A DNA stretch of 64,000 bases from the NCBI GenBank assembly GCA_016212855.1, contig JACRDP010000010.1, positions 174,622-238,621 of the forward strand, in the 5' to 3' direction. The translations under genes were made by a program, and so were the position numbers. Each line of letters begins with the position of its first letter. The first letter of the stretch is position 1. The notes beneath the pieces were generated by a model. That model saw only the letters and a program-made list of their open reading frames with translations, was not told the DNA's origin and made no database searches. Below are positions 1-16,210 of this stretch, one piece after another. Source of the stretch: Elusimicrobiota bacterium. Its GTDB lineage: Bacteria > Elusimicrobiota > Elusimicrobia > UBA1565 > UBA9628.

Positions 1-436
1 AACCCGGCCCCTTGATCACCTCGACGCGCTCGATCGTGCGGATGTCAAAGCTGCTGTCGTGAAGCCAGTAGCTCCCGCCGTATACGTTGTCGTTCATGCG
101 GTGTCCATTGAGCTGAAGAAGCACGCGGTTGGTGTAGTCGCCGGGACGGCCGAAGCCGCGCACCCAAAGATACGAGTAGTTGCGGTCGGAAATCACGTAG
201 AAGCCGGGCACGCTTTGCATGGCTTCCCCTAAGGTGCGCCAGCCGTACAATTCGATGTCGGCGGCGGTGATGACGAAGGCGTTGGCGGGGGCCTGCGACA
301 GGGGCTGAGGAAGCTTGCTGGCGGCGACGACCTTCGCCTCCTCTTCGAAGAACGTGAAAGCCGTCTCGGGCTCACCCTCGCCGGCGGCGGCGTTCGGCGC
401 GGCGAGGAAAAGGAGCGCGAAAAGCGGGCCGATCAT
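1..436 (-). CDS. TonB-dependent receptor, N-terminal fragment (signal peptide + plug domain); gene runs off the window edge
   Basis: Not in the ORF track because it is open at the edge. My reverse-strand translation from ATG 436-434 reads MIGPLFALLFLAAPNAAAGE...FVITAADIELYGWRTLGEAMQSVPGFYV...VRGFGRPGDYTNRVLLQLNGHRMND...IERVEVIKGPG, a typical TBDR plug pattern. The ATG overlaps the TGA of the upstream kinase (ATGA at 433-436). Confidence 0.7.
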   Translation of the reverse strand, partial: MIGPLFALLFLAAPNAAAGEGEPETAFTFFEEEAKVVAASKLPQPLSQAPANAFVITAADIELYGWRTLGEAMQSVPGFYVISDRNYSYLWVRGFGRPGDYTNRVLLQLNGHRMNDNVYGGSYWLHDSSFDIRTIERVEVIKGPG

Positions 437-2601
437 GAGCCCGTCCGTACGGCAGGGGCCGGGATGTTCTCAACGCTCGGGAACTCGACTCGAAATGTGG
501 TTCCACGTCCCGGAACGGATTCAAGGTCGACATGCCCGCCGTGGCGTTGGATCAACTCCGACACGAGGGCCAGCCCCAGTCCCGTACCCTTGCCCGGCTC
601 TTTCGTCGTAAAGAAGGGCTCGAATATCTTCTTCTGGATGGCCTCAGGGATTCCCTGGCCGTTGTCGGTCACGCTCAGCTGGGCCCAGACAGCGCCGGCT
701 CGCTTGACGGAATTCACGCGCACCACCACCGCGCCGTTCTCGCCGACGGCGTCGAGGGCGTTGGTGCAGAGGTTGACGATGATCTGCTGGAGATGCTGGC
801 GGTCGGCGTGGATGAACACGGGCTTGGACTCTTTTTCATGGGTCAGCGCCGAGGATTTGACCTTGGCTTGGGCCTCGACCAGCGTCAGCGTCTCCGTGAC
901 GACGGCGGCCAGATCGAATACCTCTTCGTCGCGGCGCTGGTTGTGACGCGAGAACGTCAGGAGGTTCTGCACGAGGCGCTTGCAGCGCAGGCTTTCGCGC
1001 TCGATGGCTTGCAGAGGCGCCAGCCACGGGTGTCCCGGCTCCATGCGCTTGAGAACGGACTGAGAGAAGCCCAGGATCACGCCCAGAGGGTTGTTGATTT
1101 CGTGGGCCACGCCCGCGGCGAGTTGACCGACGGCGGAGAGCTTCTCGCTTTGGATCATGCGGCTTTCATAGAGCTTGCGCTCGCCGATATCCTGGATGAT
1201 GGCGACGAAGATCGGCGGCGAGCTCATCGCCGAAAGGTGCAAACGGACCTCGACCGGATACTGGCTGCCGTCCTTGCGGCGGTGTTCGGTTTCAAACAGC
1301 AACGAATCCCTTTCGCCGGATCTCAGCGGGACGAGGATGTCCTCAAACGCGGCCGCCGTAAAGCGGGGCTTGAGGTCGAGAGGCGTCATCGCCAACAGTT
1401 CGCTCATGGAGTAGCCCAGATTGCTCCGCGCGCTGGCGTTGACCGAAGTGAAGTTCAGCGTCTTGGCGTCGAACATGTAGATTTCATTGGGCGACTCGTC
1501 GAGGATTCGTCCGAGACGGCTGAGCTCGCCTTCCACCTTGTTGCGCCGCGTGACGTCACGCAACGTGAAGATGAACGACTCGTACTCGCCGTCTTTGCGC
1601 CGGATGCCCGAGAACGAGAGAAGCGCCGTAATGTCGGCGTTCGGGCGCTTGACGGTCACTTCCGGGGGTTGCTCGGGAAGAAGCGCGCCCGCGTCGTCGA
1701 CGAGCAGCCCCTCGACAAGCTCTTGAATGCGGCGGCCGCGCAACTGCGCGGAGGAGAGGCCCAGCATCTTCTCGACGGCGGGGTTGACGCGGCGGATGGC
1801 GCCCTCGCGGTCGGTGACCAGCAGCATGTCAAGCAGGCTCGAGAGAATGGCGTCGAGCGCGTTACGGCTTAGCGTCGTCGTGTCGAGATTGACGACCATC
1901 GCGTTGAAGCCGTCGCTGAGCGCGCCGAGCTCGTCTTGGCGCAAGACGGGGACCTTCACCCCGCGCTCTCCCGCTCCGACGCGCCGCGCGGCGCTTAAGA
2001 GCGCGCTGATCGGGACGAGCAGGCCTTGGAGGATCAAGACGAGAATGACGATAGTCGCCAAGTTGATGAGAGCGCTCGACATGGCGTTGCGCCTAAAGAC
2101 TTGGCTGCGGACGGCATGGACCCTCGTCAGAGGCAAGCCGACGATGAGCCGCCCAGCGAGGTCGCTTTCGTCGGAAGAAAGCGAGTCAAGGAAATCCTCA
2201 TCGTGGAGCTTGACGGGCACGCTCACGTACACAACGGGCTGCCCGTTCCAAGTGATGATGCCGGGCGCGTCGGAATCGCCTGTCGACGGCCTCTCTTGGA
2301 TTTTGCCGACCTCGGTCACATTGGTGTGGGCGATGATCCTGCTGTCCGAATAGATCGCCGCCGCGAACTCGGCGTCGAGCCCGCGCTGAATCGCTTGAAG
2401 TCGGGGAAGCATCTTCTGCTCGCTATCGAAGTCGGCGGCTATATCGTTATTGAGGCTCTTGGCGAGCACTTCACGCGCCGCAAGCGTCTGCATGCGCACG
2501 AGCTGGGCGTTTAAGGCGTTGTCGGCGATCCATAAGCTCGCGAGCGACGAGATTCCGATCACGGCCGTGGTCAGTCCTGCGATTTTGGCCACGAGCCTCA
2601 T
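433..2601 (-). CDS. Membrane sensor histidine kinase (2 TM with extracytoplasmic loop, HAMP, PAS-like modules, HisKA, HATPase_c)
   Basis: 722-aa ORF. N-terminal TM (IAGLTTAVIGISSLASLWI), second TM plus HAMP (DELGALSDGFNAMVVNL), H-box AAGVAHEINNPLG, N box NLCTNALDAV, G boxes DNGQGIP and GKGTGLGLALV. Confidence 0.9.
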   Translation of the reverse strand: MRLVAKIAGLTTAVIGISSLASLWIADNALNAQLVRMQTLAAREVLAKSLNNDIAADFDSEQKMLPRLQAIQRGLDAEFAAAIYSDSRIIAHTNVTEVGKIQERPSTGDSDAPGIITWNGQPVVYVSVPVKLHDEDFLDSLSSDESDLAGRLIVGLPLTRVHAVRSQVFRRNAMSSALINLATIVILVLILQGLLVPISALLSAARRVGAGERGVKVPVLRQDELGALSDGFNAMVVNLDTTTLSRNALDAILSSLLDMLLVTDREGAIRRVNPAVEKMLGLSSAQLRGRRIQELVEGLLVDDAGALLPEQPPEVTVKRPNADITALLSFSGIRRKDGEYESFIFTLRDVTRRNKVEGELSRLGRILDESPNEIYMFDAKTLNFTSVNASARSNLGYSMSELLAMTPLDLKPRFTAAAFEDILVPLRSGERDSLLFETEHRRKDGSQYPVEVRLHLSAMSSPPIFVAIIQDIGERKLYESRMIQSEKLSAVGQLAAGVAHEINNPLGVILGFSQSVLKRMEPGHPWLAPLQAIERESLRCKRLVQNLLTFSRHNQRRDEEVFDLAAVVTETLTLVEAQAKVKSSALTHEKESKPVFIHADRQHLQQIIVNLCTNALDAVGENGAVVVRVNSVKRAGAVWAQLSVTDNGQGIPEAIQKKIFEPFFTTKEPGKGTGLGLALVSELIQRHGGHVDLESVPGRGTTFRVEFPSVENIPAPAVRTGS

Positions 2602-3440
2602 GGCGTGGTCTCCGCAAAACCGTCATAAAAAGCGGGGTCGCCGCTGAGGCCGGCCGCAGCGGAGCCGGAGAGGCTGACGCGAATCGACAATCGTTCCGGA
2701 TACACCGTCGTGCCGCAGCGCTCCTTTTCTTTCGCTAGGCCGACGACGGACCCGGCGACTCGCCCCATCTCGTGGAAAGTCGAGCCGAGCGAGGCGGTGG
2801 CGCCTTCGGCGACCAGATTGGCGAAAGGCGCATAAAGAGGGATCTTCTTCGTCCGGGCGGCCTGCTTGAGCATCGCGAACGTCGACTCGCTGATGAGCAG
2901 GGGATCCGGCGGCAGCAGGATCGCGGCCGACTCAAAGTCCGCGGCCCGCAGGCGATCGGGAAGTCCCTCCGCCTTTTCCATCCGGTCTGTTTCGACGGCG
3001 ATGCCGGAGGCGAGACCTGCCTTGACGAAGCTCTTCAGGTAAGGGCCGAGGGCGGGGGAAACCCAAGGAACCCAGATGCGCTTTAATCCCGGTTGGAGCC
3101 GGCGCATCGCTGCGACCATCCTCGCGGGCGCGGGCATCGCCGAGACTACGACGGTACAAACGGCTTCATGACCGCTCAGCATGTATCCGGGGGCCATGGC
3201 CACGATGAGCGTGCTCGCATTTTTGTATTTGATCTGAGCCGCCTTCGCGCCGAAGGCGACGACGGTCTCGGCGGCGGCGTCATTGTCAAGCCCGGCGAGC
3301 GCGGGAGGCGCGTCTGGCCCCAGCGCTTCGCGCAGGCCCTCGAGGGCCTCGCGATACGGCTTGGACTGCGAGCTGAGCACGGCCGCGGTCTCGGCGGAGG
3401 CCGGAACGGCGAGCAAGGCGGCGAAGACGACCGTCCTCAT
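2598..3440 (-). CDS. Periplasmic substrate-binding-like protein (resembles the ABC_sub_bind/PF04392-type proteins that accompany sensor kinases)
   Basis: 280-aa ORF with signal peptide MRTVVFAALLAVPASA. ATGA overlap with the kinase start. The family call is from overall pattern only and was not searched. Confidence 0.55.
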   Translation of the reverse strand: MRTVVFAALLAVPASAETAAVLSSQSKPYREALEGLREALGPDAPPALAGLDNDAAAETVVAFGAKAAQIKYKNASTLIVAMAPGYMLSGHEAVCTVVVSAMPAPARMVAAMRRLQPGLKRIWVPWVSPALGPYLKSFVKAGLASGIAVETDRMEKAEGLPDRLRAADFESAAILLPPDPLLISESTFAMLKQAARTKKIPLYAPFANLVAEGATASLGSTFHEMGRVAGSVVGLAKEKERCGTTVYPERLSIRVSLSGSAAAGLSGDPAFYDGFAETTP

Positions 3441-3814
3441 GGGTCGCCCTCACACCGGCTCATCGCCTCGCGGGCGGCGCGCACGAACACCTCGAGGCGG
3501 AAGGGCTTGCTCAGAAACCGCTTCACGCCCAGCCTCTTGGCCCGCTCTTCGATCCCGGAAGTCGGAGAGCCGGTGATCACGATCACCGGCGCGGAGGGCT
3601 TAAGGCGCAGGAACTGCGCGGCCGCGTCGAGGCCGTTGCCGTCGCCGAGCATGATGTCGGTGACCAGCAGATCGTAGGAATCGAGGTCGTCCATGCGCAG
3701 GACGTCCGCCAGACACTCCGCCTGCGTGACCTGCCAGCGCAACGGCGCCAAGGCCCGCGCGCACAGGCGGCGGATGGAGGGCTCATCCTCCAGGATCAGG
3801 ACGCGCGGGGTCAC
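3437..3814 (-). CDS. Single-domain response regulator (receiver only)
   Basis: Receiver motifs LILEDE, LLVTDIMLGDGNG, VIVITG, LSKPF. I trimmed the tracked ORF (3437..3919) to the GTG at 3814-3812, which overlaps the TGA of the upstream gene (GTGA). The longer N-terminus is Arg/Gly-rich junk. Confidence 0.85.
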   Translation of the reverse strand: MTPRVLILEDEPSIRRLCARALAPLRWQVTQAECLADVLRMDDLDSYDLLVTDIMLGDGNGLDAAAQFLRLKPSAPVIVITGSPTSGIEERAKRLGVKRFLSKPFRLEVFVRAAREAMSRCEGDP

Positions 3815-5379
3815 CCGGCCTCCTTTACACGCGGCAGGAGAAGCGCGAAGGTGGCGCCTTCCCCCGGCCGGGAGACCGCCTCGAGCGCGCCGCCGTGCGC
3901 CGCGGCGATGCCGGCGCACACCGACAAGCCCAGCCCCGCTCCTTGGCCGGGGGCCTTGGTCGTAAAAAACGGCTTGAACAGCTTCTTGCGCAACGCCTCG
4001 TCAAAACCTTGGCCGTTGTCGGAAACCTCGACGCGGACCATGTCGCCGTCGGGTCTGATGCGCAAGGTGAGCTTCGGCGCGCGGGCCGAGGCCATCGCCT
4101 GCAGGGCGTTGCGCACGAAGTTGATGAGGACTTGCTTGATCTGCAGCGCATCGGCCAGCACGTCGGGCGTATCCGTGAATTCGCGCGCGATCGCGATGCC
4201 GTCGGCGATGTCCCAGCGAATCAGGCGCAACGCGGACTCGACCAAGGCCACGACCGGCTCGGGCTTGAGGATCGGGGGGGTGCCGCGCCCGAAGGTCAGA
4301 AGGTCCTCGACGATGCGCCGGCAGCGCTCCGTCTGCTCCAGGATGCAGGCGACGTCGTCGGCCTGCTCGGGCGTGAGGTTCGAGGTCTCCAGCATCTGGG
4401 CGGAGCCGAGGATGCCGGTCAACGGGTTGTTGATCTCGTGCGCCACGCTCGCCGCGACGCGGCCGAGGGCGTTGATCCGCTCTGACTCCTTCAAATGAGC
4501 CTGGCTGAGGGACAGTTGACGCATCAAGCGCGCGTTGACGACCGCCTGCACGGCGTGGATGGCGAAAAGGGAGAGGGTTCTCGCCTCGCTCTCGTCGAAG
4601 GGCAGCGGCGAGGCCGTGCGGTTGGCGCAGAGCACGCCGAAGACCGCGCCGGAGGAGACCAGCGGCTGGATGAGGGAGGAACGCACGCCGCGAAGGCCGG
4701 GCACGTCCTTAAAGCGCTCGTCATCGGCCAACGGCCCCAGGATCAGGTAGGACTCGCCGCTGGCCGCGGCCCGGCCGGCCACGCGCTCGCCCAGGGCGAT
4801 GCGCGCGCGACGCGGCTCCTCCCCGTCGAGCCCCGTGCAGGCGGCGACCGTCAGCGCGTCGTCCTCCAAAATCAACAAGGAGGCGTCATCGGCCTGGACC
4901 AGGCGCGCGCCGATCTCCACGATGCGCGTGAGGATCTCGTCGAGTTCGATGCTTTTGTGGATCGCTTGGGCGGCGACGTAGATGGACAAGGTGCTCTTGA
5001 GGTCCTTGCGCTCGAGAGCCTTGTCCGCGGTGCGCATCAGCACGTCGATCTCGAAGGGCTTGAGCACGAAGTCGTAGGCGCCCAGGCGCATGGCCGCCAC
5101 GGCGGTCTCCACCGTTCCGTCGCCGGTCATGAGCACGACCTCGGTCTGCGGCGAGCGCAGCTTGACGATTTCAAGCAGGCTCAAGCCGTCCATGCCGGGC
5201 ATGCGGACATCGCTGAGCATCAGGTGGAAATTCTGCCGGCCGAGCAGTTCCAGCGCCTTCGCCCCGCTCTCCGTCGTGACGACCTCCCAGCCGCGCGCTT
5301 TCAGCTCGAAGTCGAGCATTTCACGCACGCCGGGCTCGTCGTCGACGACAAGCACGCTCGTGCGGGGCGGGTCGGTCAT
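3811..5379 (-). CDS. Cytoplasmic hybrid histidine kinase: receiver + GAF-like + HisKA + HATPase_c
   Basis: 522 aa. N-terminal receiver (VLVVDDEPG, LMLSDVRMPGMDG, LKPF), central GAF-like region, H-box AASVAHEINNPLTG, G boxes DNGQGF and GQGAGLGLSV. No TM segment. Confidence 0.9.
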   Translation of the reverse strand: MTDPPRTSVLVVDDEPGVREMLDFELKARGWEVVTTESGAKALELLGRQNFHLMLSDVRMPGMDGLSLLEIVKLRSPQTEVVLMTGDGTVETAVAAMRLGAYDFVLKPFEIDVLMRTADKALERKDLKSTLSIYVAAQAIHKSIELDEILTRIVEIGARLVQADDASLLILEDDALTVAACTGLDGEEPRRARIALGERVAGRAAASGESYLILGPLADDERFKDVPGLRGVRSSLIQPLVSSGAVFGVLCANRTASPLPFDESEARTLSLFAIHAVQAVVNARLMRQLSLSQAHLKESERINALGRVAASVAHEINNPLTGILGSAQMLETSNLTPEQADDVACILEQTERCRRIVEDLLTFGRGTPPILKPEPVVALVESALRLIRWDIADGIAIAREFTDTPDVLADALQIKQVLINFVRNALQAMASARAPKLTLRIRPDGDMVRVEVSDNGQGFDEALRKKLFKPFFTTKAPGQGAGLGLSVCAGIAAAHGGALEAVSRPGEGATFALLLPRVKEAG

Positions 5380-5738
5380 GGCAGAGGCTCCAGCGCGAAC
5401 GCGATCACTTCATCAAAGCGCGCGGGCTTGGGCAGGCAGGCGAGGGCGCCCGCGGCCAGGGCGGCGGCGGCGATATCCTCGTTCATCACGCTGTAGACGA
5501 GAATTTTCTGGCCGGGACGGGCCGCGATCATACGGCGCACGAGCTCCGGGCCCGTAGCGTCGCCCAGGAATCCGTCGACCAGCACCAAGTCGTAGCCTCG
5601 TTCGCAGACCATGCGAAGGGCCGCGGCGGCGGTGCCGGCCTCGGCGACCAGCCACCCGCGTTCGGACAACGCGAAGCGCGCCAGGTCAAGATAGCTCGGC
5701 TCGTCATCGACGACCAGTATGCGCGAAATGGCCGTCAC
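5376..5738 (-). CDS. Single-domain response regulator (receiver only)
   Basis: 120 aa. ILVVDDEP, LVLVDGFLGDATG, LVYSV, LPKP. 4-nt overlaps on both sides. Confidence 0.85.
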   Translation of the reverse strand: MTAISRILVVDDEPSYLDLARFALSERGWLVAEAGTAAAALRMVCERGYDLVLVDGFLGDATGPELVRRMIAARPGQKILVYSVMNEDIAAAALAAGALACLPKPARFDEVIAFALEPLP

Positions 5739-6109
5739 GCGCCACCCCCCGCGGTCAGGCGCAGCGCCGTGGCGATGAGGGCCCGGGGCTCGGCGGGTTT
5801 GCTGAGGCAGGCATCGGCCCCGCAGGAGCGCCGCAGGGACTCGGCCTCCTCCGGAGGGCAGGCGGTCAGCAGAAGCACGGGCACGGCCGCGGTCGCCGGG
5901 TCGGCCTTGAGCGCGAGACAGGCCTCGGTGCCGTCCATGCCCGGCATGTGCGCGTCGAGCACGATCAAGTCGGGCGTGCGCGCACGCGCGGCGGCCAAGG
6001 CCTGGCCCCCGTCGTCGGCCAGGAAAATGGAGAACCCCGCCGCCTCGAGCCTGAGACGGGAAATTTCGCGTCCGAAGAAATCGTCATCGGCCAAGAGCGC
6101 TTGGGGCAT
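5735..6109 (-). CDS. Single-domain response regulator (receiver only)
   Basis: Trimmed from ORF 5735..6268 to ATG 6109-6107 (MPQALLADDDFFG...). LIVLDAHMPGMDG, LLLTA, LSKP. The discarded N-terminus is Arg/Pro-rich and overlaps the upstream gene. Confidence 0.8.
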   Translation of the reverse strand: MPQALLADDDFFGREISRLRLEAAGFSIFLADDGGQALAAARARTPDLIVLDAHMPGMDGTEACLALKADPATAAVPVLLLTACPPEEAESLRRSCGADACLSKPAEPRALIATALRLTAGGGA

Positions 6110-6488
6110 ACCCTCTCCCTTCGGCCTTGGCCAGCCAGCCGCGCACGAAGGCGACCGCGTCTCGCGGCGAGCAGGGCTTGGCGAGGTAGCCGTCACAACC
6201 CGCCTCGAGGGTGCGGACCTCGTCGCCCGCCATCGCGTGCGCGGTGTAGGCGATGATCGGAGCCGCAAATCCCGGGACCTGCTGGAAACGGGGCGCGGCG
6301 TCCCAGCCGTCGAGACGGGGCATGGTCATGTCGAGCAGGACGAGATCGACCGGCGTCGCGGCGGCGGCGTCCAGGGCCTCGACGCCGTCTCGAGCGAGAA
6401 TGACGCTGAAGCCCGCGGCTTCAAGCGCGGAGCGCATGATGGAGCGGTTGTCGCAATCGTCCTCGGCGAGCAGAATTCGCTTAGACAT
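6084..6488 (-). CDS. Single-domain response regulator (receiver only)
   Basis: 134 aa. ILLAEDD, LVLLDMTMPRLDG, IIAYTA, LAKP. Confidence 0.85.
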   Translation of the reverse strand: MSKRILLAEDDCDNRSIMRSALEAAGFSVILARDGVEALDAAAATPVDLVLLDMTMPRLDGWDAAPRFQQVPGFAAPIIAYTAHAMAGDEVRTLEAGCDGYLAKPCSPRDAVAFVRGWLAKAEGRGYAPSALGR

Positions 6489-8364
6489 GGGAGATCTCCT
6501 CCATTTTCGCCAGACGGCTGCGCACGGCGCTCAGCATCTCTTCGACGCCCGCCTTGCCTTTCTGCATGACGAGTTCGGCGCGGGTCTCGAGCGCCGCTTG
6601 TTCGGCGCGCGTGAGCGTGCGTCCGGTCAGAACGATGACCGGCACCCGGCTCAGCGCGGGCTCGGCCGCCATGGCCTCGAGAATCTTGGCGCCGTCCATG
6701 TCGGGCATGCCCAGGTCCACGAAGGCGAGGTCCGGCGGCTCGGCGCGCATGGACGCGAGCGCGCGCCGGCCGCTGCCGGAGCAGGTGACGCGATAGCCTT
6801 CGGACGTCAGGGCGATCTTCATGAATTCGGCCACGTCCGGGTCGTCGTCGGCGACGTGTATGCGACGGCCCTTGGGGGCGTCGAGCGCGTTGAGCCGGGC
6901 GATGAGGAGCGTGTAGTCCACGGGCTTGACCAGCCAATCGCTCACGCCCAGGGAATAGCCCAGCTCCCGGTTCTCGCCCGAGGTCACCACCAGGACGGGA
7001 ATGGCGGCGGTCTCGGGGTTTGATTTGAGAGACTGAAGAATCGTCCAACCGTCGAGGCGCGGCATCATGATGTCGAGAGTGATCGCGTAAGGCTTGAGAT
7101 TCTTGGCCAGGGCCAGGCCTTCCTCGCCTGATTGGGCCGTCGCCGTCGCGTAGCCTCCGGCCTCCAAGCCGTCGCGCAAGAGAGCCAAGGTGGTCTGGTC
7201 GTCTTCGATGATCAGCACGAGCTTGCTTCCGGCGTTCTGCGCGTGGGAGCGCCCCGCGGGGATGACGATCTGCGCCTGCTCGACGAGCACGTCCGCGCGG
7301 AAGGTCGTTCCGCGTCCCAGGACGCTCTCCACGCTTACGCCGCCGCCCATCAGCTCCGCTATTTTCTTGACGATGGAAAGCCCCAGCCCCGTGCCGCCGT
7401 GACGGCGAACGAGCGTGCCTTCAAGCTGGCGGAATTGTTCGAACAACTTGCCCTGATCCTCCGGGGAAATGCCCGCTCCGGTGTCGGCGACGCTCAACGT
7501 GAGACGGCGTTTGTCCGGCGTGACGACGGCGCAGATATCGATAGAACCCTTCTCGGTGAACTTCACGGCGTTGCCGGCGAGATTGATGAGTATCTGCCGC
7601 AGTTTGCTCTTGTCGGACCGCACGCGCAGTCCTGCGGCAGCCTGCGTACGCAAGGAGAGTCCCTTTTCCTCGGCCAGGACGGAGAGGGTTTGGCGAACTT
7701 CCTCGAGCAGCTCCGTGAGCTCAAAATCCTCCGGATGCACGGGCATCATTCCCGCGTTGAGCTTGGAGAGATCGAGCACGTCGTTGATCAAGGTCAGCAG
7801 CGCCCGGGCGCTGGCCGTGACGCGGCCCAGGGCCTGCGCCTGCGCCGCCGGGGCGGGGCCGTAAACGCCGTCGATGACGAGCTCGGTGTAGCCGATGATC
7901 GAATTGAGCGGCGTGCGCAGTTCATGGCTCATGCTCGCCAGGAACTCGCTTTTGACGCGGTCAGTTTCCTGCAGATCCGTCACGCGGCCTTTGAGCCGCG
8001 CGCGCTCGAGCGCGCGATCGAGCGTCACCGCCAAGCGCTCGATCTCGTAGGGCTTGGTGACATAATCGTAAGCGCCGCAGCGCATCGATTCGATGGCCGT
8101 CTCCAGGGTGGCGCAGCCCGTGGCCATGATCACCTCGGCGTGGGGCATGCGCTCCTTGATGCGCTTGAGCGTTTCCACCCCGCCGATGCCCGGCATCATG
8201 ATGTCGCACAGCACGACTTCGAAGCGGTCGAGGGCGGTCTTCTCGAGGGCCTCCTCGCCGCTGCCGGCGCCCGCGACCTCCCAGCGCTGCGACAGCTCGA
8301 AAGTGAGCATATCTCTCAGTCCGGCCTCGTCATCGACGATCAGAATCTTGGGCTTGGCGTCCAT
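6481..8364 (-). CDS. Cytoplasmic hybrid histidine kinase: receiver + HisKA + HATPase_c + receiver + receiver
   Basis: 627 aa. REC1 (ILIVDDEAG, VLCDIMMPGIGG, TKPY), H-box FLASMSHELRTPLNSIIGY, G boxes DTGAGIS and GGTGLGLSIV, REC2 (LIIEDDQ, ITLDIMMPRLDG, LVKP), REC3 (HVADDDPD, AFVDLGMPDMDG). Confidence 0.9.
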   Translation of the reverse strand: MDAKPKILIVDDEAGLRDMLTFELSQRWEVAGAGSGEEALEKTALDRFEVVLCDIMMPGIGGVETLKRIKERMPHAEVIMATGCATLETAIESMRCGAYDYVTKPYEIERLAVTLDRALERARLKGRVTDLQETDRVKSEFLASMSHELRTPLNSIIGYTELVIDGVYGPAPAAQAQALGRVTASARALLTLINDVLDLSKLNAGMMPVHPEDFELTELLEEVRQTLSVLAEEKGLSLRTQAAAGLRVRSDKSKLRQILINLAGNAVKFTEKGSIDICAVVTPDKRRLTLSVADTGAGISPEDQGKLFEQFRQLEGTLVRRHGGTGLGLSIVKKIAELMGGGVSVESVLGRGTTFRADVLVEQAQIVIPAGRSHAQNAGSKLVLIIEDDQTTLALLRDGLEAGGYATATAQSGEEGLALAKNLKPYAITLDIMMPRLDGWTILQSLKSNPETAAIPVLVVTSGENRELGYSLGVSDWLVKPVDYTLLIARLNALDAPKGRRIHVADDDPDVAEFMKIALTSEGYRVTCSGSGRRALASMRAEPPDLAFVDLGMPDMDGAKILEAMAAEPALSRVPVIVLTGRTLTRAEQAALETRAELVMQKGKAGVEEMLSAVRSRLAKMEEISHV

Positions 8365-8421
8365 AAGACTGAGTATATAGTCCCGGGATTGGGCCCGACT
8401 TACAGGGCGCTTAACTGACGC

Positions 8422-8826
8422 TTAAGTCCGGGCGGCGGGGGGCGCGACGACGCCCGCGAACTTCCACACATAATCACGGACTTTGCGCAAATCGAGAGGC
8501 TTGCTCATCAGGCCGATGGTCGAGTCATTGGCCGGAAGAAGCGCCCGCGCCCGCTGCGGATCCATCGCCGTCATGAAGAGGATGGGCACGCGCGGCAGGC
8601 TCGGGTCATCGCGCAGGAGCTTAAGCGTCCGCGTGCCGTCTCCAAAGCCCGGCATCTGTATATCGGAGATGATCAAGAGGGGAGAGAGGTCGCGCGCTTG
8701 GATGAAGGCTTGCAGGGAGTCTTGCGCGGTCGTGACGGTCAATTCCGGATGTTCCAACGCCGCTTGCAAGACAGCCAGCATCGTCGGATCGTCGTCCACC
8801 ACCAGTATCCAGCGTTTCTTCGCCAT
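8422..8826 (-). CDS. Single-domain response regulator (receiver only)
   Basis: 134 aa. ILVVDDDP, LIISDIQMPGFGDG, LFMTA, MSKP. Confidence 0.85.
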   Translation of the reverse strand: MAKKRWILVVDDDPTMLAVLQAALEHPELTVTTAQDSLQAFIQARDLSPLLIISDIQMPGFGDGTRTLKLLRDDPSLPRVPILFMTAMDPQRARALLPANDSTIGLMSKPLDLRKVRDYVWKFAGVVAPPAART

Positions 8827-8846
8827 GATCGGCCTCGCCCGCGAGC

Positions 8847-9413
8847 TTACGATCCCCTCGTCTCGCGGCCGGACCTGGAAGCGACCGGCAGATCGATGAG
8901 ATAAACCGTTCCCGCGCCCTCTTCGCTCGAGACGTTGATGACGCCGCCGGATCTCTCGATTTGGCGCCGGGCCTCGGAGAGGCCGGAGTGCCCGTTCCCA
9001 TACATCGCGACGAGCTCCTGGACGCTCATCCCGGGGCCGCAGTCGCGCAACTCCAAAGTGAGCCTGCCGGAGGAAGCGCTCAGACGCAGCCCCATGCGGG
9101 CTTTGCGCCCCTTCATGGATTGCGCGGAGAGCGTCATAAGGCTGGAGAGACCGGCGCGCAGAAGGGAAGGATCGGCCAGGACCTGAACTCCTTTCTCGGC
9201 GCGGGAAAAGCGGAATTCAGTCCGGTGCAGGCTCTGCGTCGCATCCGCCTTCGCGAGCCAGATGAGCCGGGAGATGTCGGTCGCCTCGACGACCGCGCGC
9301 GCCGGAGCCGCGCTCCTCGACGCCGGCGCGGCAACGCGGATCGCGACGGGCGACAAAGGGATGAACGGCGAGGAGAACAAGGCCGACGTCACGACGAGCA
9401 GGGCGGGTTTCAT
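8847..9413 (-). CDS. Exported HATPase_c-like protein without HisKA domain (degenerate kinase ATPase module)
   Basis: 188 aa. Hydrophobic N-terminus (MKPALLVVTSALFSSPFIPLS), then LELRDCGPGM (G1-like), GHSGLSEARR (G2-like, degenerate) and GAGTVYLIDLP. No H-box, and the N-box Asn is not evident. Confidence 0.55.
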   Translation of the reverse strand: MKPALLVVTSALFSSPFIPLSPVAIRVAAPASRSAAPARAVVEATDISRLIWLAKADATQSLHRTEFRFSRAEKGVQVLADPSLLRAGLSSLMTLSAQSMKGRKARMGLRLSASSGRLTLELRDCGPGMSVQELVAMYGNGHSGLSEARRQIERSGGVINVSSEEGAGTVYLIDLPVASRSGRETRGS

Positions 9414-9528
9414 GGCGGCACCTCACTGTCGAGAGTATGCCTGCGCCCGCTTATGGGCCGCTGATGCCGCGATAAAAGCGTTCCTAAGTCGCGTGCTCCA
9501 TGGACGCGTCGCGCGAAACGGGCGCGGA

Positions 9529-10128
9529 TTACTTCAGGGACTGCAGGATCTTGAGGACCTCGCCCTTGCGCGTGATGATCGCCTGTCGGGACGCGTCGGT
9601 TTTGGCCGAGTCCGGAAGCCCATCCACCAACTTCGCGTCCTCGGCGATGTCGCCGGAAATCTTGTCCACGGCGCGGATCTGGCGGCCGAGTTTGACGCTT
9701 TGCTTGCTCAGCTCCGCCAGCATTTCGACGTCGTCCGGACGCAGTTGCGCCATCTCGGCGTCCACGCGCTTCTTCTCGGCCTTAAGGGAGTCGCACACGG
9801 CCGTCCAATAGCCGGTCTTCTTTTTTAGGAGCGCCTTGACGTCCTCGATCGAGCCGTCTTTCGTCGCGACCGCGTCACCCTCGTCTCCATAGGGGAAGAC
9901 GACGAGAAGCGGCGCGATTTCGAGGGGGACGCCGGAGAGCTGCCGGGCGTATCCATCGGCCTTGCCCACGGCCGCGGCGATCGCCGCTTTGGCGGCCGCG
10001 GCGCAGACGCTTGCCTTCACGCCGCCGCAGCCGGAACCGTTCGGCGGCTTAGATGCCCCGGCACGAGCCGAGAGGGGGAGAAGGAGGGCCGCCGCCGTCA
10101 GGAGCTTGAGCGCCGTATTGTTGGTCAT
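9529..10128 (-). CDS. Hypothetical secreted protein
   Basis: 199 aa. Signal peptide (LKLLTAAALLLPLSARA), balanced Lys/Asp/Glu-rich composition unlike the overlapping Arg-rich frames. No family recognised. Confidence 0.7.
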   Translation of the reverse strand: MTNNTALKLLTAAALLLPLSARAGASKPPNGSGCGGVKASVCAAAAKAAIAAAVGKADGYARQLSGVPLEIAPLLVVFPYGDEGDAVATKDGSIEDVKALLKKKTGYWTAVCDSLKAEKKRVDAEMAQLRPDDVEMLAELSKQSVKLGRQIRAVDKISGDIAEDAKLVDGLPDSAKTDASRQAIITRKGEVLKILQSLK

Positions 10129-10166
10129 ACCGATAGGATAGCCGCCGCGGACACCGGCGCCGAGTG

Positions 10167-10198
10167 TCCTAGGGCCCCCGCCCCGTGGGGCCCTAGGA
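10167..10198. promoter_or_regulatory. 12-bp-arm perfect inverted repeat in a divergent promoter region (candidate operator)
   Basis: TCCTAGGGCCCC-cgccccgt-GGGGCCCTAGGA lies between the -10 boxes of the divergent genes starting at 10128 (-) and 10226 (+). Confidence 0.4.
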
Positions 10199-10207
10199 CC
10201 CAGACTT

Positions 10208-10216
10208 TGCTAGAAT
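10208..10216 (+). promoter_or_regulatory. Extended -10 promoter element TGcTAGAAT, 9 nt upstream of ATG 10226 (likely leaderless mRNA)
   Basis: TGCTAGAATTCC followed by gaggac then ATG. No Shine-Dalgarno in the gap. The identical 12-mer recurs at 36989-37000. Confidence 0.5.
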
Positions 10217-10225
10217 TCCGAGGAC

Positions 10226-10693
10226 ATGCGCGCACCAGCCGTCTTATTAGCCGCTTTAATAACCCTCGCCGCCTGCGGCGGAGGGGACACCGCCTCGCGC
10301 CTGCCGGACGTGCGCCTGCCCACCTTGGGCGGCCCCCTGGGCCCCTCGCTGGCCACCTGTGCCACGGCGAAATGCCTGACCGTGATCGTGGCTCCGTGGT
10401 GCTCGGTGTGCCACCAGGTCACGCCCGACATCGTGCGCCTGCGCCGCTTCCTCGATAAGACCGGCGTGTCCTCGCGCGTGGTCGTCGGCCTGGCCGAGAT
10501 CGAGCCGATCAAGGAGTTCGCCGCGCTGTACGGCTCCGACGCCTTGCTCGATGATCAAGGAGCGATCAAGGCGCGCGGCGTGCCGCAATTCATCGTGACC
10601 AACCGCGCCGGCGACGTGATCAAGCGCGTCGGAGGCTTTCCTCGCGGAGCCTCGTCGTCCGCAGATTTGGCCGCCTATTTCGATCTTCCCTAA
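10226..10693 (+). CDS. Thioredoxin-fold thiol:disulfide oxidoreductase lipoprotein (TlpA/ResA-like)
   Basis: 155 aa. Lipobox LITLAAC, CxxC active site APWCSVC. Confidence 0.8.
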   Translation: MRAPAVLLAALITLAACGGGDTASRLPDVRLPTLGGPLGPSLATCATAKCLTVIVAPWCSVCHQVTPDIVRLRRFLDKTGVSSRVVVGLAEIEPIKEFAALYGSDALLDDQGAIKARGVPQFIVTNRAGDVIKRVGGFPRGASSSADLAAYFDLP

Positions 10694-11824: not shown

Positions 11825-13364
11825 GCCCGCGGTTCTGGCCGCTCTGCTGCTGCTCGCGCCCGCCGGCGCGAGCGCGCAGCGCGGACGTTCGTACGACCCC
11901 GAGGTCGCCTTGCTCGTGCTCACGATCCAGAAGGCGAGCGTTCAGCTTCTGCGCGAGGAGCTCGTGCGCCAGGCCGAGTGGCTGGAGCTCGGCGGCATGC
12001 AGGTCCTGCTCGCCGAGAAGGTCGGCGGTTTCGCGAAGAACGTCACCAAGGGCCTCACCGCCGACTCGGACATCCTCGAGGATTACCGCCAGCAGATTCT
12101 CAAGGTCGACCCGACCGCGATCGGCGAGGTGGACAAGCTCATCAACGAGATCCGCCGCTACCACGACCTGGTCCCCGGCCCGCCGATGGTGCGCCTGCCC
12201 TGGCCGCCGCCGCCCGGACCCCAACTCGAGTTCCTGGAGGAGGACGGCATCGGCGCGGACGCCGCCTCCGCCCTCAAGGGCACGCCGGCCATGGACGAGC
12301 CCGTGGCCTACGCCGAGCGGCGCTTCGGCACGACCGGGCCCTTCCTGCGCCATAGAATGTGGAACCTCGACTTCTACCTCGGTTCGTTCAGCGACCTGCT
12401 CCTCCATTATAAAAAGCTCGGCTACCGCCGCATCTACCGGCTGCGCTCGCCGTACGTCAGCTACGGCAAGGAAGCCTACGTGCTCTCCCCCGAGCCGGGG
12501 CTTCGCCCGCGCGTGGTCTACTGCGGTTTTTACGGCCAGGATCTCTTTCTCCATACGCGCGCCCAGTGGGCGATCCTCACCGAGCGCGGGAAAGGAGAGA
12601 GCACGACGGTGCGCACCTTGACCTGCCCCTCCTGTACCTGGGTCCTGCCGGGCGTGCGCGCGATGAGGTCTTTGCTCGCCACCGTGCCCTACTCCGCCGA
12701 CACCGTCGTCGTGGGCTACGACTACCTCTTCGAGCCCGAGTGGAAGGACCAGGCGCTCGGCGTCTACGAGAACGACTATTGGCGCCTGTCCTATTTTAAA
12801 ACCGGCCCGACCATCAGCGCGACGGTCGTGCCGCGCCGCACCAATTTCGGCGAGATTCTGGCGGCCTCGCTGACCCCGTTGGTCCGACGCGGCGCCAAGC
12901 GCGTGTACTACGCCGGACCCGCGGCGCGCGTCGACGAGGGCGCCGCCGGCGACGAGCTCCAGATCCCGACGGATTTCGCGGCCTTCACCGGCAGCGTCGT
13001 CGCCTTCGAAAACGCGCTCCTGCCGCGCAAGCCCAAGAAGCGCCTCTTCGCCGCCCTGCCTTCGCCCCTGCTCGCCACGCGCGAGTGGCTCAAGGACGCG
13101 GCCGGCCACGACATCGTCGCCTTCGACGGCGAGATGGCCCGCCTCGCCGAGGAAGCCGCCGCCTGGGGCCGCATCCGCGACCACCGCGTGGAGTGCGGCA
13201 TCGGCGCGGTGCTCGCGGGCCTGGCCAACCTCCACCCCGAGGAGGACCGCGCGGTGTACACGATCAGCTACGAGAGCCAGGCCGGCAAAGAGTCGGCGAA
13301 GCGCCGCTATCGCGACCTGGTGCTCGGCAAGATCAAGACCGCCGGCAAAGCCGCCGAAGAATAG
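11808..13364 (+). CDS. Hypothetical secreted protein (no recognisable family)
   Basis: 518 aa. TTG start gives the signal peptide (M)[22 protein letters not shown]|Q. Realistic composition (Tyr/Phe/Lys/Trp) versus the Arg/Gly-rich competing frames. Overlaps the ald end by 17 nt. Confidence 0.65.
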
Positions 13365-13378
13365 CGCCGGATATAGGC

Positions 13379-13508
13379 CGGGCGGAGAGATCGCCCCTCG
13401 CCGGGGACGGTCGGGATTGACCCTCCCTGCGCTGCCTGTCCGCGACGCATGAGAACGCCCTTGTCGCGGCAGGCAGAGCCCGCCGGCGAGGGTCGATCTC
13501 TCCGCCCG
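13379..13508. repeat. Long imperfect hairpin element A (~130 nt)
   Basis: Outer arms 13379-13404 / 13483-13508 pair 25 of 26. Inner arms 13432-13446 / 13463-13476 (CTGCCTGtCCGCGAC / GTCGCGGCAGGCAG) enclose a 16-nt loop. The large unpaired bulge is on the 5' side. Confidence 0.7.
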
Positions 13509-13623
13509 ATGATATTTCCCGCGGGCTTTTTCGACGACATCGAACGGCTTTATCGCCTGCGGCGATGGGCTTGTGCGTGAGAAAGAAGACGGCGAGGAAC
13601 CGTGCGGGCCGATTCCTTGATAA

Positions 13624-13755
13624 GGCCCGGGGAGACCGTCTAGTCCTCCGGGGCGTCGGTCAAGCCGCGACTAGAGAGCCGTCGCACGTCGCGGACTGAC
13701 CGCCGAGCGAGGTCGATCCGAGCGTCCCCGGAGGGCTAGACGGTCTCCCCGGGCC
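13624..13755. repeat. Long imperfect hairpin element B (~130 nt), same architecture as A but inverted
   Basis: Outer arms 13624-13653 / 13726-13755 pair 29 of 30. Inner arms 13657-13671 / 13688-13702 (CGGTCAAGCCGCGAC / GTCGCGGACTGACCG) enclose a 16-nt loop. The large bulge is on the 3' side. Confidence 0.7.
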
Positions 13756-13792
13756 GTCTCAAGACCTTCGCCGTTCTCAGCTCATCGCCGTT

Positions 13793-14611
13793 TTATTTCG
13801 GAGCGAGGTGGAAGTCGGTCACGAGGGGCGTTTCGGAATTGGGCTCGAGGGAAGCGGGCTCGGAGATCGTCGTCGCGAGTTCCGCGACGAGCTCCTTGCG
13901 GCGCTCGAGCGGCATCTCGGAGACTCCCTCCGTTCCCGGGTTGAGGTAGGTCTTCGCGTAGCCGGCCTTGGAGATCGCCACGAGGTAGCCGTGACCGCGC
14001 AGCGGCGGAAGGATGGTCCGGTACAGGCCCGCGGAATCGCTCACGAGAAACGCCTGCGAGTTCGTCTCGTTGTCCGTGAAGATCAGCTTGGCGCCGGCCA
14101 CCGGCCTGAGGGTGACGAGGTCGTAGACGTGGCCGCGCATCTTCCACTCGCGCACGATCTTCTCTTTCGCGGCGGCCTCGGGCATGATCGAGACGACGCC
14201 GCCGCCCTCCTCGTCGGGATTGACCTTGCGCACGTACTTCACGCGTCCCTTCGGGTCGTAGACGCCGGTGACCTGCTCGTTGACGATGCCCTGGATGGCT
14301 TCGCTGTTGACGGGAACGACGCCGCCGCCCGTGGGGGCCAACGAGACGGAGCGCGCCGCCTTCTGCACCGTGGTGACCGCGCCGCGCGTGGTCTGCTCGG
14401 TGGTCGACCAGAAGAACGAGGCCATCGCCCAAATTCCGTAGCCGAGACCGCCGAAGAGGAGGATCGGCATGATGATGTTGCGGAAGGTGTCGCTCTGGAA
14501 CGCGGTCTTCTCCGGCGGCGCGTCACGGAAGGACAACGGGCAGTTGGGACAGCTCTCCCAATCCGGCAGGAGCTTCGTCCCGCAGCCCGGGCATTTCGCG
14601 GGAGCGGACAT
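13793..14611 (-). CDS. Membrane protein: N-terminal zinc-ribbon (CPGC..CPNC), one TM, extracytoplasmic carboxypeptidase-regulatory-like beta-sandwich
   Basis: 272 aa. CPGCGTKLLPDWESCPNC, TM IIMPILLFGGLGYGIWAMASFFW, then GHVYDLVTLRPVAGAKLIFTDNETN..SDSAGLYR..GYLVAISKAGY. Start lies 3 nt after the serA stop. Confidence 0.7.
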   Translation of the reverse strand: MSAPAKCPGCGTKLLPDWESCPNCPLSFRDAPPEKTAFQSDTFRNIIMPILLFGGLGYGIWAMASFFWSTTEQTTRGAVTTVQKAARSVSLAPTGGGVVPVNSEAIQGIVNEQVTGVYDPKGRVKYVRKVNPDEEGGGVVSIMPEAAAKEKIVREWKMRGHVYDLVTLRPVAGAKLIFTDNETNSQAFLVSDSAGLYRTILPPLRGHGYLVAISKAGYAKTYLNPGTEGVSEMPLERRKELVAELATTISEPASLEPNSETPLVTDFHLAPK

Positions 14612-14614
14612 TCG

Positions 14615-16210
14615 CTACAGCTCCACCCAGTGCACGCGCCGGATGCCCTCGAGGCGCGTGAGCTCGGCGCGCACGGACGGCGAAGCCTCGTCGTCGACGT
14701 TGAGGACCATGACGGCTTCCCCGTGCGCGGAGCGGCGGCCGACCCGCATGTCGGCGATGTTCACGCCCGCCTTGCCGAGCAAGGTGCCGACGCGGCCGAT
14801 CACGCCCGGCGCGTCGTTGTTGGCGATGACGATCATCTTCCCTTGGGGGCGCACGTCGATGAGCAGGCCGCCGAGCTTCAGAATGCGCGGCTCGCCGGGC
14901 GCTAGGACCGCGCCGCTGACCGAGACGGGGCCCTTGTCGGTGGCCGCGGTCAAGGTGAGCATGCGGCGCACGCCGCCGGAGACGCGCGGGTCGGAGGACT
15001 CGCCCACCTTGATGCCCCGGTCGGCCGCGACGGCGGGGGCCGAGATCCAACTGACGCCGGGACCCATGATCGGCGTGAGGAAGCCCTTGAGCGCGGACAC
15101 GCCGAGGGGGCGGCGTTCGCGGCCGGCGAATTCTCCCGCGAACTCGCAGGCGAATTCGCTGACGCCGCCCTCGAGCGTCTGCGCGAGGAAGCGGCCCATC
15201 GCCTCGGCCAGCGGGATCCACTCGCCCAGCGCGGCGAGCGTGTCCGGATCGAAGCCGGGCATGTTGAGCGCGTTGGGCGCGATGCCCTTGTCGTGGAAAT
15301 CGATGACCGCCGTGGCGAGCTCGGTGGCCACGCGGCTCTGCGCCTCGGCCGTCGAGGCGCCGAGGTGAGGGGTGAGGATCAGGCTGGGGCAACCGCGAAG
15401 CGGACTATCCGCCGGAAGGGGCTCCGCGTGGAACACGTCGAGCGCCGCGCCTCCGAGCTGGCCGCTCTTGAGCGCCGCGGCCAGGGCCGCGTCGTCGATG
15501 AGCTCGCCGCGAGCGCAGTTGATCAGGCGCAGGCCCTTCTTCGCCTTCGCGAGCGCGGCGGCGTTGACCATCCCGTTGGTCTTCTCGCCGCCGGGGACAT
15601 GCAAAGTGACGAAATCGGATTGGGCCAGCACGTCGAGAAAGCTCAGCGGCATGATGCCGATCTCTTTGGCCTGCGCGTCGGTGACGAAGGGGTCGAAGCC
15701 GACGAGCTTCATGCCGAAGGACGCGGCGCGCTTGGCGACCTCGCGGCCGATGCGGCCGAGACCGACGACGCCGAGCGTCTTGCCGTGAAGCTCGACGCCC
15801 ATGAACTTGCCGCGCTCCCACTTGCCCGCCTGGGTCGAGGCGTCGGCCTGCGGGATGTGGCGGGCCAAAGCGAGCATCAGGGCGACGGCGTGCTCGGCCG
15901 CCGCCAGGGTATTCGCCGCGGGGGCGTTGACGACGGCGATGCCGCGGCGCGTGGCCGCGGGCAGGTCGATGTTGTCCACGCCGACGCCGGCGCGGCCGAT
16001 GAGCTTGAGGTCCTTGGCCTTGCCGATCCACTCGGCGGTGAGCTTTGTCTCCGAGCGCACGAGCCAGGCGCCCACCCCGGGCAGGAGCTTCTCGAGCTCC
16101 TCGGGCTTCGGGGCGACTTGATAAATCAGCTCGATGCCCGCGTGCGCCTTCAGGGGCTTGAGCCCCTCGGGGTCGATCTTGTCCGTGACGAGGACCTTCA
16201 GCTTGGCCAC
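14615..16210 (-). CDS. serA: D-3-phosphoglycerate dehydrogenase (long form with ASB and ACT domains)
   Basis: 531 aa. GTG start. GVVGLGRIGREVA NAD motif and C-terminal ACT-like region (MIVIANNDAPGVIGRVGTLLGKAGVNIADM). Confidence 0.9.
   Translation of the reverse strand: MAKLKVLVTDKIDPEGLKPLKAHAGIELIYQVAPKPEELEKLLPGVGAWLVRSETKLTAEWIGKAKDLKLIGRAGVGVDNIDLPAATRRGIAVVNAPAANTLAAAEHAVALMLALARHIPQADASTQAGKWERGKFMGVELHGKTLGVVGLGRIGREVAKRAASFGMKLVGFDPFVTDAQAKEIGIMPLSFLDVLAQSDFVTLHVPGGEKTNGMVNAAALAKAKKGLRLINCARGELIDDAALAAALKSGQLGGAALDVFHAEPLPADSPLRGCPSLILTPHLGASTAEAQSRVATELATAVIDFHDKGIAPNALNMPGFDPDTLAALGEWIPLAEAMGRFLAQTLEGGVSEFACEFAGEFAGRERRPLGVSALKGFLTPIMGPGVSWISAPAVAADRGIKVGESSDPRVSGGVRRMLTLTAATDKGPVSVSGAVLAPGEPRILKLGGLLIDVRPQGKMIVIANNDAPGVIGRVGTLLGKAGVNIADMRVGRRSAHGEAVMVLNVDDEASPSVRAELTRLEGIRRVHWVEL

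Follow-up and report, generated by a model that had tools for sequence, protein, structure and literature searches.

A Conserved Signal-Transduction Operon of Elusimicrobiota with Three Histidine Kinases, Nine Receivers, and a Putative TonB-Dependent Receptor–Binding Protein Input

Gene Content and Organization

The stretch of DNA analyzed here (hereafter, the window) comprises 64,000 nt of the forward strand of contig JACRDP010000010.1 (positions 174,622–238,621; assembly GCA_016212855.1) from an Elusimicrobiota bacterium (UBA9628). Its first 9413 nt carry an operon of 11 consecutive minus-strand genes, numbered g1 to g11 in the direction of transcription, which is an elaborate but recognizable variant of bacterial two-component signaling. 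These genes had been listed in a preliminary description of this DNA, and every gene, every domain, and their order were reproduced with an open reading frame (ORF) listing and Pfam.

The operon opens with g1 (8847–9413), an exported protein consisting only of a signal peptide and a degenerate catalytic and ATP-binding (CA) domain (HATPase_c, 32.6 bits), and continues with g2 (8422–8826), a stand-alone receiver (REC) of 134 aa. The hybrid kinase g3 (6481–8364, 627 aa) has the order REC-HisKA-HATPase-REC-REC, with three receiver stretches, and is followed by three stand-alone receivers: g4 (6084–6488, 134 aa), the conserved partner gene of g3, g5 (5735–6109, 124 aa), and g6 (5376–5738, 120 aa). 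The REC-GAF-HisKA-HATPase protein g7 (3811–5379) has the layout of a receiver-controlled second-tier kinase, and g8 (3437–3814) is a further stand-alone receiver of 125 aa. The remaining three genes encode an exported two-lobed binding protein of the ABC_sub_bind family (g9, 2598–3440; PF04392, Pfam 3.6e-08), a 722-aa membrane sensor kinase (g10, 433–2601), in which two transmembrane segments enclosing a periplasmic Cache-like part precede HAMP-PAS-PAS-HisKA-HATPase, and a TonB-dependent receptor (TBDR; g11, 1–436), of which the window holds the 5′ part, 145 codons of 652 aa, the gene continuing past the window edge. A hydrophobicity scan detected N-terminal segments resembling signal peptides in g9, g11, and g1 and two membrane segments in g10; the other proteins appear soluble. 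No operon protein has a curated equivalog in NCBIfam.

The genes are tightly packed. Spacers of 20 and 57 nt separate g1 from g2 and g2 from g3, while g3 and g4 overlap by 8 nt, g4 and g5 by 26 nt, and the genes at the remaining six junctions by 4 nt each; 8 of the 10 junctions are thus overlaps of 4–26 nt, with the Shine-Dalgarno sequences located within the upstream genes. The start of g5 is ATG 6109, preceded by GGAGAGG. The start of g8, previously placed at 3919, is corrected here to GTG 3814, which forms a GTGA overlap with the g7 stop and has GGAGG 5 nt upstream. Gene lengths and starts agree with independent gene calls on public Logan and JGI contigs.

Kinases and Receivers

Alignment with EnvZ and HK853 shows complete H, N, G1, F, and G2 boxes in g3, g7, and g10, and Pfam assigns HisKA and HATPase_c to all three. 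The preliminary description counted four kinase-type proteins; three of these are true kinases, and the fourth, g1, carries a pseudo-kinase domain and is not a kinase. The NtrB-like H-box AHEINNP is common to g7 and g10, and the H-box of g3 reads SHELRTP. The GAF domain of g7 is a cytoplasmic input domain.

The receivers had been described as keeping their phospho-acceptor residues, and alignment with CheY and Spo0F bears this out for all nine, each of which has D57, T/S87, K109, and D13. Position 12 is Asp in six (including g2, D12-D13-D57-T87-K109, and g6, D12-D13-D57-S87-K109) and Glu in three: the first C-terminal receiver of g3 (g3_R2), g4, and g8 (E12-D13-D57-T87-K109). They fall into two classes. 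Class A, which is NtrC/FixJ/CpdR-like, contains the N-terminal receivers of g3 (g3_R1) and g7, together with g8 (NtrC/CpdR-like) and g6; class B contains g2, g3_R2, g3_R3, g4, and g5. The closest paralogue of the g3 N-terminal receiver is that of g7 (119 bits). An unusual β3-α3 loop, DGFLGDA, is present in g6. The locus holds, in one conserved unit, three kinases, some of them receiver-controlled, and stand-alone receivers, which is the architecture of a multikinase network. The density of stand-alone receivers, earlier regarded as unusual, is not peculiar to this locus; related Elusimicrobiota loci are equally receiver-rich.

Conservation of the Operon

Gene-order conservation had been singled out for checking, and we find that the order g2–g11 recurs in two other metagenomic contigs at 57–83% protein identity. 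These are L083 (7.6 kb; comparison loci are designated by L numbers) and L082/L087, a 50-kb JGI contig, in which the order and the overlaps of g2/g3 to g9/g11 are those of the window; even the 26-nt overlap of g4 and g5 is identical in L083 and L087. Identities to L087 are 80, 79, 71, 75, and 82% for g2 to g6 and 81, 79, 57, 66, and 81% for g7 to g11. Because ten genes recur in the same order and with the same overlaps in other contigs, the arrangement is not a matter of chance.

We note that the periplasmic sensing proteins (g9, 57–66%; g10, 66%) have diverged faster than the cytoplasmic relay (71–83%) and the TBDR (81%).

Among species-representative genomes, the best relatives of g3 are found only in Elusimicrobiota metagenome-assembled genomes (MAGs), at ∼50% identity. 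An orthologue of g4 (46–55% identical) lies directly after the g3 orthologue in L001, L002, L005, L006, L009, and L012, and a stand-alone REC ORF occupies this position in L004, L007, and L008 as well, among the loci with enough flanking sequence. A REC/REC-kinase/REC block resembling g6-g7-g8 is present in L002. The g3-g4 orthologues stand beside the set of TBDR, binding protein, and sensor (hereafter, the triad) in a different gene order in L001, L005, L007, L009, and L122, and without the triad in L002, L004, L006, and L008. Elusimicrobiota have a modular supercluster of these genes, of which the window operon represents one arrangement.

Absence of an Hpt or Output Domain

The preliminary description reported neither an output domain nor an Hpt domain in the operon. 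Pfam searches at E ≤ 0.01 on all operon proteins and at E ≤ 10 on unassigned segments found neither, and the same result was obtained with a dedicated Hpt hidden Markov model (HMM), which was built from 38 Hpt tails of related hybrid kinases. Applied to all six-frame ORFs of the 64 kb, this lineage-specific HMM returned no convincing Hpt (best E 0.48). The operon Pfam hits include no chemosensory CheA, CheW, or methyl-accepting chemotaxis protein (MCP). Two parts of a multistep phosphorelay are missing: there is no Hpt in 64 kb and no terminal regulator with an output domain in the operon. REC and kinase HMMs found no further kinase in the window, and its only other receiver protein is an orphan NarL/GerE-type regulator (50731–51414, minus strand), which is 41 kb away and has no kinase gene near it.

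In L087, the closest long syntenic contig, the genes after the TBDR (12149–20661) encode an OmpR-type regulator, a PAS-GAF kinase, a REC-GGDEF protein, and a kinase-REC-Hpt protein, as well as a second TBDR and another receiver. We considered whether the missing output is an artifact of the window edge and rejected this for the present genome. The full window TBDR was recovered (P0035, 652 aa), and a Logan contig of the same sample (L086) shows that it is followed after 89 nt by a lipoprotein gene (L086:2239–2523); the 120 best hits to the L087 Hpt kinase included no orthologue on the 239-kb contig of the window. To the extent visible here, the operon of this genome has neither an output nor an Hpt. 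All receivers look phosphorylatable, and the earlier suggestion that the output is encoded elsewhere or is exerted by protein–protein contact remains the most reasonable reading.

The Input Module

The translation of g11 is identical to the N-terminus of P0035, which consists of Plug and TonB_dep_Rec_b-barrel domains. It comprises a signal peptide, the plug, and a sequence, AKVVAAS, that we read as a TonB box by eye only; its start overlaps the g10 stop by 4 nt. The nearest solved relatives of P0035 are CirA and BtuB (aligned from residue ∼33), as for a generic small receptor, and the protein stays below every NCBIfam cutoff. It has no N-terminal STN extension, and the operon holds no sigma or anti-sigma genes, the marks of a FecA-type transducer.

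The binding protein g9 is identical (100%) to P0001, HY923_03780, a hypothetical protein of an Elusimicrobia bacterium, and carries a signal peptide ending in ...AVPASA/ET. Its AlphaFold2 model (pLDDT 91.3) is a two-lobed type-I binding protein, for which the best Foldseek matches are 3lkv, 3lft, and CD0873, members of PF04392 that bind Phe, Trp, or Tyr (E 2e-12, TM-score 0.6–0.69); XylFII (5xss) is also among the fold matches. Pfam finds no cognate ABC permease or ATPase for g9 in the operon, and g9 is therefore presumed to act as a co-sensor of g10. The latter has hydrophobic segments at residues 3–26 and 171–206, which flank a periplasmic part of ∼145 aa; an sCache_3_2 domain is significant in the kinases at the orthologous position in L005, L009, L094, and L097. 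An exported two-lobed orphan binding protein with conserved adjacency to a membrane sensor that has a periplasmic domain is the gene pattern of the LuxP-LuxQ and TorT-TorS type.

To survey the triad, we recovered 43 metagenomic loci with members of the g9 family and annotated them with custom HMMs and Pfam. A TBDR gene adjoins every one of the 25 binding-protein genes that have at least 1.5 kb of upstream flank (upstream in 23, downstream in 2). Of the 22 binding-protein genes with at least 2 kb downstream, 14 are directly followed by an sCache_3_2/HAMP kinase, which is itself usually followed by a stand-alone receiver. Orthology of that receiver to one of the window receivers was considered and not upheld, as it has no clear orthologue (30–35% identity to g4, g3_R2, and g5). 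The same triad occurs in L084/L085. Its parts also occur in other combinations: a Nitrospirota MAG (L134:6001–11329) has TBDR, ABC_sub_bind, and, downstream, a HAMP/GGDEF/EAL sensor where the kinase would otherwise stand; an Acidobacteriota MAG (L135:5006–8013) has the binding protein–TBDR pair alone; and in Colwellia, ABC_sub_bind is followed by a dCache hybrid kinase. The suspected link of the operon to the TBDR is thus a real module that recurs across contigs and phyla. The part of the earlier proposal that tied it to uptake did not stand as such: the link concerns sensing and not necessarily nutrient uptake, because the operon has no ABC genes and the partner sensor in the Nitrospirota relative is a GGDEF-EAL protein. 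We read the triad as a recurrent input device that combines a channel and a binding protein with a sensor whose transmitter can be exchanged. We found no description of a TBDR-PF04392-sensor triad in the searchable literature; the closest publication describes short PF04392-like proteins encoded in the vicinity of chemoreceptor genes (PMC10805632).

Tandem binding protein–TBDR units are formed by 5 of the 22 binding-protein genes; the input device may have been duplicated ahead of a single sensor. They are seen in L104, L114, L116, and L117, for example as binding protein-TBDR-binding protein-kinase. Separately, one predicted protein of 1047 aa (P0047) combines GAF-HisKA-HATPase with Plug and a TonB-dependent barrel; it is either a true kinase–TBDR fusion or an artifact of gene calling in which two overlapping genes were joined.

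A GspE/PilB-Type ATPase in Related Clusters

The preliminary description found no output or Hpt module, which is correct for the operon. It does not extend to the orthologous clusters: these encode an obvious effector, a receiver-fused ATPase of the GspE/PilB type, and one of them also has a gene for an Hpt protein. A protein of ∼700 aa with MshEN and T2SSE domains and a C-terminal receiver is encoded after g3-g4 in L001 (12681–14807), L002 (12238–14340), L004, L005 (12243–14366), L006 (12286–14331), L007, and L009 (6315–8477). In L012, the ATPase-REC gene (8342–10423) and a gene for a stand-alone Hpt (7851–8339, Pfam 2.7e-13) lie just upstream of the g3 orthologue; this is the only Hpt found next to any g3 orthologue. 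The ATPase belongs to the GspE/PilB family and falls under both equivalog cutoffs (GspE and PilB). Its fused receiver is of class B and is nearest g4 and g5, with g5 up to 43% identical, and in the window g5 occupies the slot directly after g4 where the relatives have the ATPase-REC gene. The TBDR and the rest of the triad lie further on in L001, L005, L007, and L009, and L122 brings together a g3-like hybrid kinase, PilB, a PilS-like kinase, and the triad.

From the position of the ATPase-REC gene after g4 in these relatives, the final target is likely to be a type IV filament motor. The missing output of the window operon thus has a concrete candidate, most likely a motor for type IV filaments (pilus or secretion) whose genes would lie elsewhere in the genome, as judged from gene neighborhoods. 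The PilG/PilH pair of the Chp system and PixE-PilB1 are known cases in which output-less receivers control type IV pilus ATPases. A further precedent for an output-less receiver acting on PilB/PilT is DrdR of Xanthomonas (PMC13507683).

The Exported Protein g1 and Flanking Genes

Neither a dimerization and histidine phosphotransfer (DHp) domain nor a phospho-accepting His is present in g1; its N-box Asn and F box are missing as well, and its ATP lid is cut short. Residues 45–178 of its AlphaFold2 model match the CA domains of HK853, ZraS, and CckA (E 3e-11). The family is tiny, with five representatives at E < 1e-10 among 1.84 billion, all of 170–190 aa; its members share AxA signal peptides and keep DxGPG without exception, while most of the ATP lid is lost and the N-box Asn that serves Mg-ATP remains in one member only. 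In L089, a relative with 71% identity again precedes the g2 orthologue. The gene is absent from L087, and a 40% relative adjoins a toxin–antitoxin pair and a nucleoside transporter; g1 is peripheral to the conserved core and not an obligatory member of the operon, a role that these two cases led us to reject. Two other identities were also discarded. A frameshifted kinase remnant does not agree with the existence of a full-length family of signal-peptide proteins of 170–190 aa, and a ChpT/Spo0B-type phosphotransferase does not agree with the signal peptide or with the lack of a helical hairpin and of a conserved His. An exported and presumably inactive CA domain is odd and has no obvious periplasmic role.

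The ORF listing has, 115 nt ahead of g1 and in the same orientation, a gene for a 199-aa protein (9529–10128, minus strand). The protein is probably coiled and, by eye, likely has a signal peptide, although the scan found no hydrophobic segment. It matches no Pfam family and is not syntenic in L087, and its membership of the operon is doubtful. It was considered as a cryptic Hpt and cannot be one because it has no histidine. The flank upstream of g1 is otherwise housekeeping in character, with SerA, SerC, Lon, trigger factor, and, by eye, alanine dehydrogenase.

The Spacer between g2 and g3

An internal −10 box had been proposed in front of g3. The TATACT hexamer is indeed present (8377–8372, minus strand), 7 nt before the g3 ATG, and the promoter lacks statistical support. 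The start of g3 has no Shine-Dalgarno sequence, and a TATACT at 7 nt would fit a leaderless start. The promoter scan found no minus-strand promoter site and no −35 partner here, and YATACT is not enriched (5 found vs 5.98 expected). Nor is the hexamer conserved at the aligned position: L083 has TATAAT ∼6 nt further upstream, and L087 has nothing. The candidate internal promoter at TATACT is thus unsupported by consensus scan, enrichment, and conservation.

A block of ∼30 nt just after the g2 stop (ACTTAAGCGTCAGTTAAGCGCC..TCTAAG; window 8378–8421, minus strand) is conserved in the g2-g3 spacers of the window, L083, and L087. It includes a TTAAGCG direct repeat, and the remaining spacer is not conserved.

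Proposed Mechanism and Alternatives

As the best explanation of the locus as a whole, we propose, with about even confidence, that it is a signal-transduction operon conserved in an Elusimicrobiota lineage of high GC content and built from three sub-modules that are also found rearranged in related genomes. Starting from the observed gene content, the intact catalytic residues, the conservation of the operon, and the recurrence of the triad, we infer a wiring, a ligand class, and a target as follows. The TBDR g11 would admit a ligand across the outer membrane, and the orphan binding protein g9, whose fold is closest to that of aromatic-amino-acid binders, would capture it. By analogy with LuxP-LuxQ, TorT-TorS, and XylFII-LytS, g9 may then dock on the periplasmic Cache-like domain of g10 and set the balance of its autokinase and phosphatase activities. 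The receiver and DHp classes suggest, without proving, that g10 and g7 signal to class A and g3 to class B. In such a scheme, g10 and g7 would phosphorylate g8, g6, and the N-terminal receivers of g7 and g3, by which the first kinase would switch two further kinases, with g7 contributing a cytoplasmic input through its GAF domain. In turn, g3 would phosphorylate its own two C-terminal receivers, g4, g5, and g2, and the output-less class B receivers might act by protein–protein contact on a type IV filament motor.

Several observations weigh against this proposal. The wiring suggested by receiver and DHp class is a family-level reading and not an analysis of specificity residues. The C-terminal receivers of g3 would normally hand on to an Hpt, and neither Pfam nor the Hpt HMM finds one. 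A GspE/PilB homologue is absent from the 64-kb window and from 22 kb around the closest syntenic relative, and the putative filament-motor link comes from orthologues of only ∼50% identity. On the input side, g9 is only 13–15% identical to the aromatic-amino-acid binders, the sCache_3_2 match of g10 is sub-threshold in the window protein (residues 29–134, E 0.056), and the window order of binding protein-kinase-TBDR is permuted with respect to the common TBDR-binding protein-kinase.

An Hpt partner for g3 is part of a first alternative, a classical phosphorelay, in which the C-terminal receivers of g3 pass phosphate to an Hpt outside the locus, which hands it on to a response regulator with a DNA-binding or enzymatic output, also outside the locus, while the five stand-alone receivers serve mainly as phosphate sinks or buffers that shape the kinetics. 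A hybrid architecture such as that of g3 normally needs an Hpt, and candidates are within reach in related genomes: a stand-alone Hpt is encoded two positions ahead of the g3 orthologue in L012, some hybrid kinases of related Elusimicrobia bear an Hpt, L087 has its OmpR-type regulator, REC-GGDEF protein, and kinase-REC-Hpt protein just after the TBDR, and the window itself has the orphan NarL-type regulator at 50731–51414. We nevertheless consider this account unlikely, since the 64 kb hold no Hpt, the TBDR of the window genome is followed by a lipoprotein and not by an OmpR regulator, and the best 120 hits include no orthologue of the L087 Hpt kinase on the 239-kb contig. Moreover, the five receivers are conserved at 71–82% with intact active sites, for which specific partners are a better fit than redundant sinks.

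The other two alternatives differ from our proposal in what they make of the input and of the signal flow, and we rate both as improbable. The system might only tune expression of its own TBDR to the imported substrate, as PfeS/PfeR does for PfeA, with the transcription factor encoded elsewhere; in favor of this, the TBDR is cotranscribed with the kinases, as judged from the 4-nt overlaps, and TBDR genes beside two-component systems are a known pattern (PfeA-PfeSR, PirA-PirSR). But neither the operon nor the syntenic core has a DNA-binding regulator, the gene after the canonical triad encodes a stand-alone receiver and not a transcription factor, the Nitrospirota sensor is a cyclic di-GMP (c-di-GMP) enzyme, and the operon has no inner-membrane transporter for the substrate, which together make this very unlikely. 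Only marginally less remote is accretion, by which independent two-component systems came to share a transcript and no signal flows between the sub-modules. The triad does stand alone in many loci and g3-g4 does without it in four, and there are two distinct receiver and DHp classes; on the other hand, ten genes have been kept together with identical overlaps across 57–83% divergence, g3-g4 and the triad are again neighbors, in another order, in the five loci named above, and the N-terminal receivers of two kinases, which are close paralogues, need an upstream kinase. Our proposal of a connected cascade that starts at the triad remains the reading we favor.

Comparison with Known Systems

Binding-protein-assisted sensor kinases are known from LuxP-LuxQ, TorT-TorS, and XylFII-LytS, and the window shares with them a periplasmic type-I binding protein that has no transporter and is encoded beside a membrane kinase with a periplasmic domain, an adjacency kept across taxa. 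It differs in that LuxP, TorT, and XylFII are ribose-binding-protein-like, whereas the window protein belongs to PF04392; in that its module includes a TBDR and may have either a kinase or a GGDEF-EAL protein as partner; and in that the g9-g10 interaction is a predicted one. Genes for TonB-dependent transporters are linked to sensors in PfeA-PfeSR and PirA-PirSR of Pseudomonas and in the SusC/SusD and hybrid two-component systems of Bacteroides. There, as is proposed here, a TonB-dependent channel delivers to the periplasm a ligand that is detected by a neighboring kinase; unlike them, the window has no DNA-binding domain or regulator, and it has an additional soluble binding protein and a downstream part of several kinases and receivers only.

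That downstream part recalls multikinase networks with output-less receivers, such as RedCDEF of Myxococcus, LovK/PhyK-MrrA and HmrABCX of Caulobacter, and GacS/RetS/LadS of Pseudomonas, which likewise have several kinases, receiver-controlled kinases, stand-alone receivers as connectors, and no output domain in the cluster. The window is distinguished by being one translationally coupled operon with nine receivers, by its TBDR/binding-protein input, and by a wiring that is so far predicted. With PilG/PilH, PixE-PilB1, and DrdR it has output-less receivers in common, and the cluster of the relatives holds an ATPase of the GspE/PilB family; unlike those systems, the relatives carry the receiver on the ATPase polypeptide, genes for CheA, CheW, or MCP are missing, and the cluster of the window lineage has no ATPase gene. 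Finally, a single-domain PF04392-like protein of Rhodothermus marinus (5z6v, 6k1w) has been reported near genes for methyl-accepting chemotaxis proteins (PMC10805632). It is of the same family as g9 and lies near signaling genes; g9 differs in having both lobes, a kinase partner, and an adjacent TBDR.

Implications

For the window itself, the outcome is mostly solid annotation of a recognizable system, which has the makeup of a multikinase network with a putative binding-protein-assisted sensor as its input. Two leads go beyond it, the cross-phylum TBDR-binding protein-sensor triad and the receiver-fused GspE/PilB ATPases. Taken together, they allow a broader proposal, which as a single joint claim we regard as unlikely. 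The triad would be a widespread outer-membrane-gated input, in which TonB-energized import serves to sense and not to eat and in which the transmitter, a kinase or a c-di-GMP enzyme, is interchangeable; in the Elusimicrobiota, a cascade of receiver-controlled kinases without an Hpt would take its signal from the triad and switch a type IV filament ATPase directly, through fused or free receivers, with g1 as an extra periplasmic partner.

If the mechanism proposed above as the best explanation is correct, the TBDR and orphan binding protein would form a reusable sensory input device, conserved in at least three phyla, that can be plugged onto kinases or c-di-GMP enzymes. The operon would also offer a compact, fully cotranscribed three-kinase cascade in which all players are known and which is suited to phosphotransfer profiling. 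For the Elusimicrobiota, a phylum with few cultivated members, the results would point to direct control of GspE/PilB-type motor ATPases by phosphorylation.

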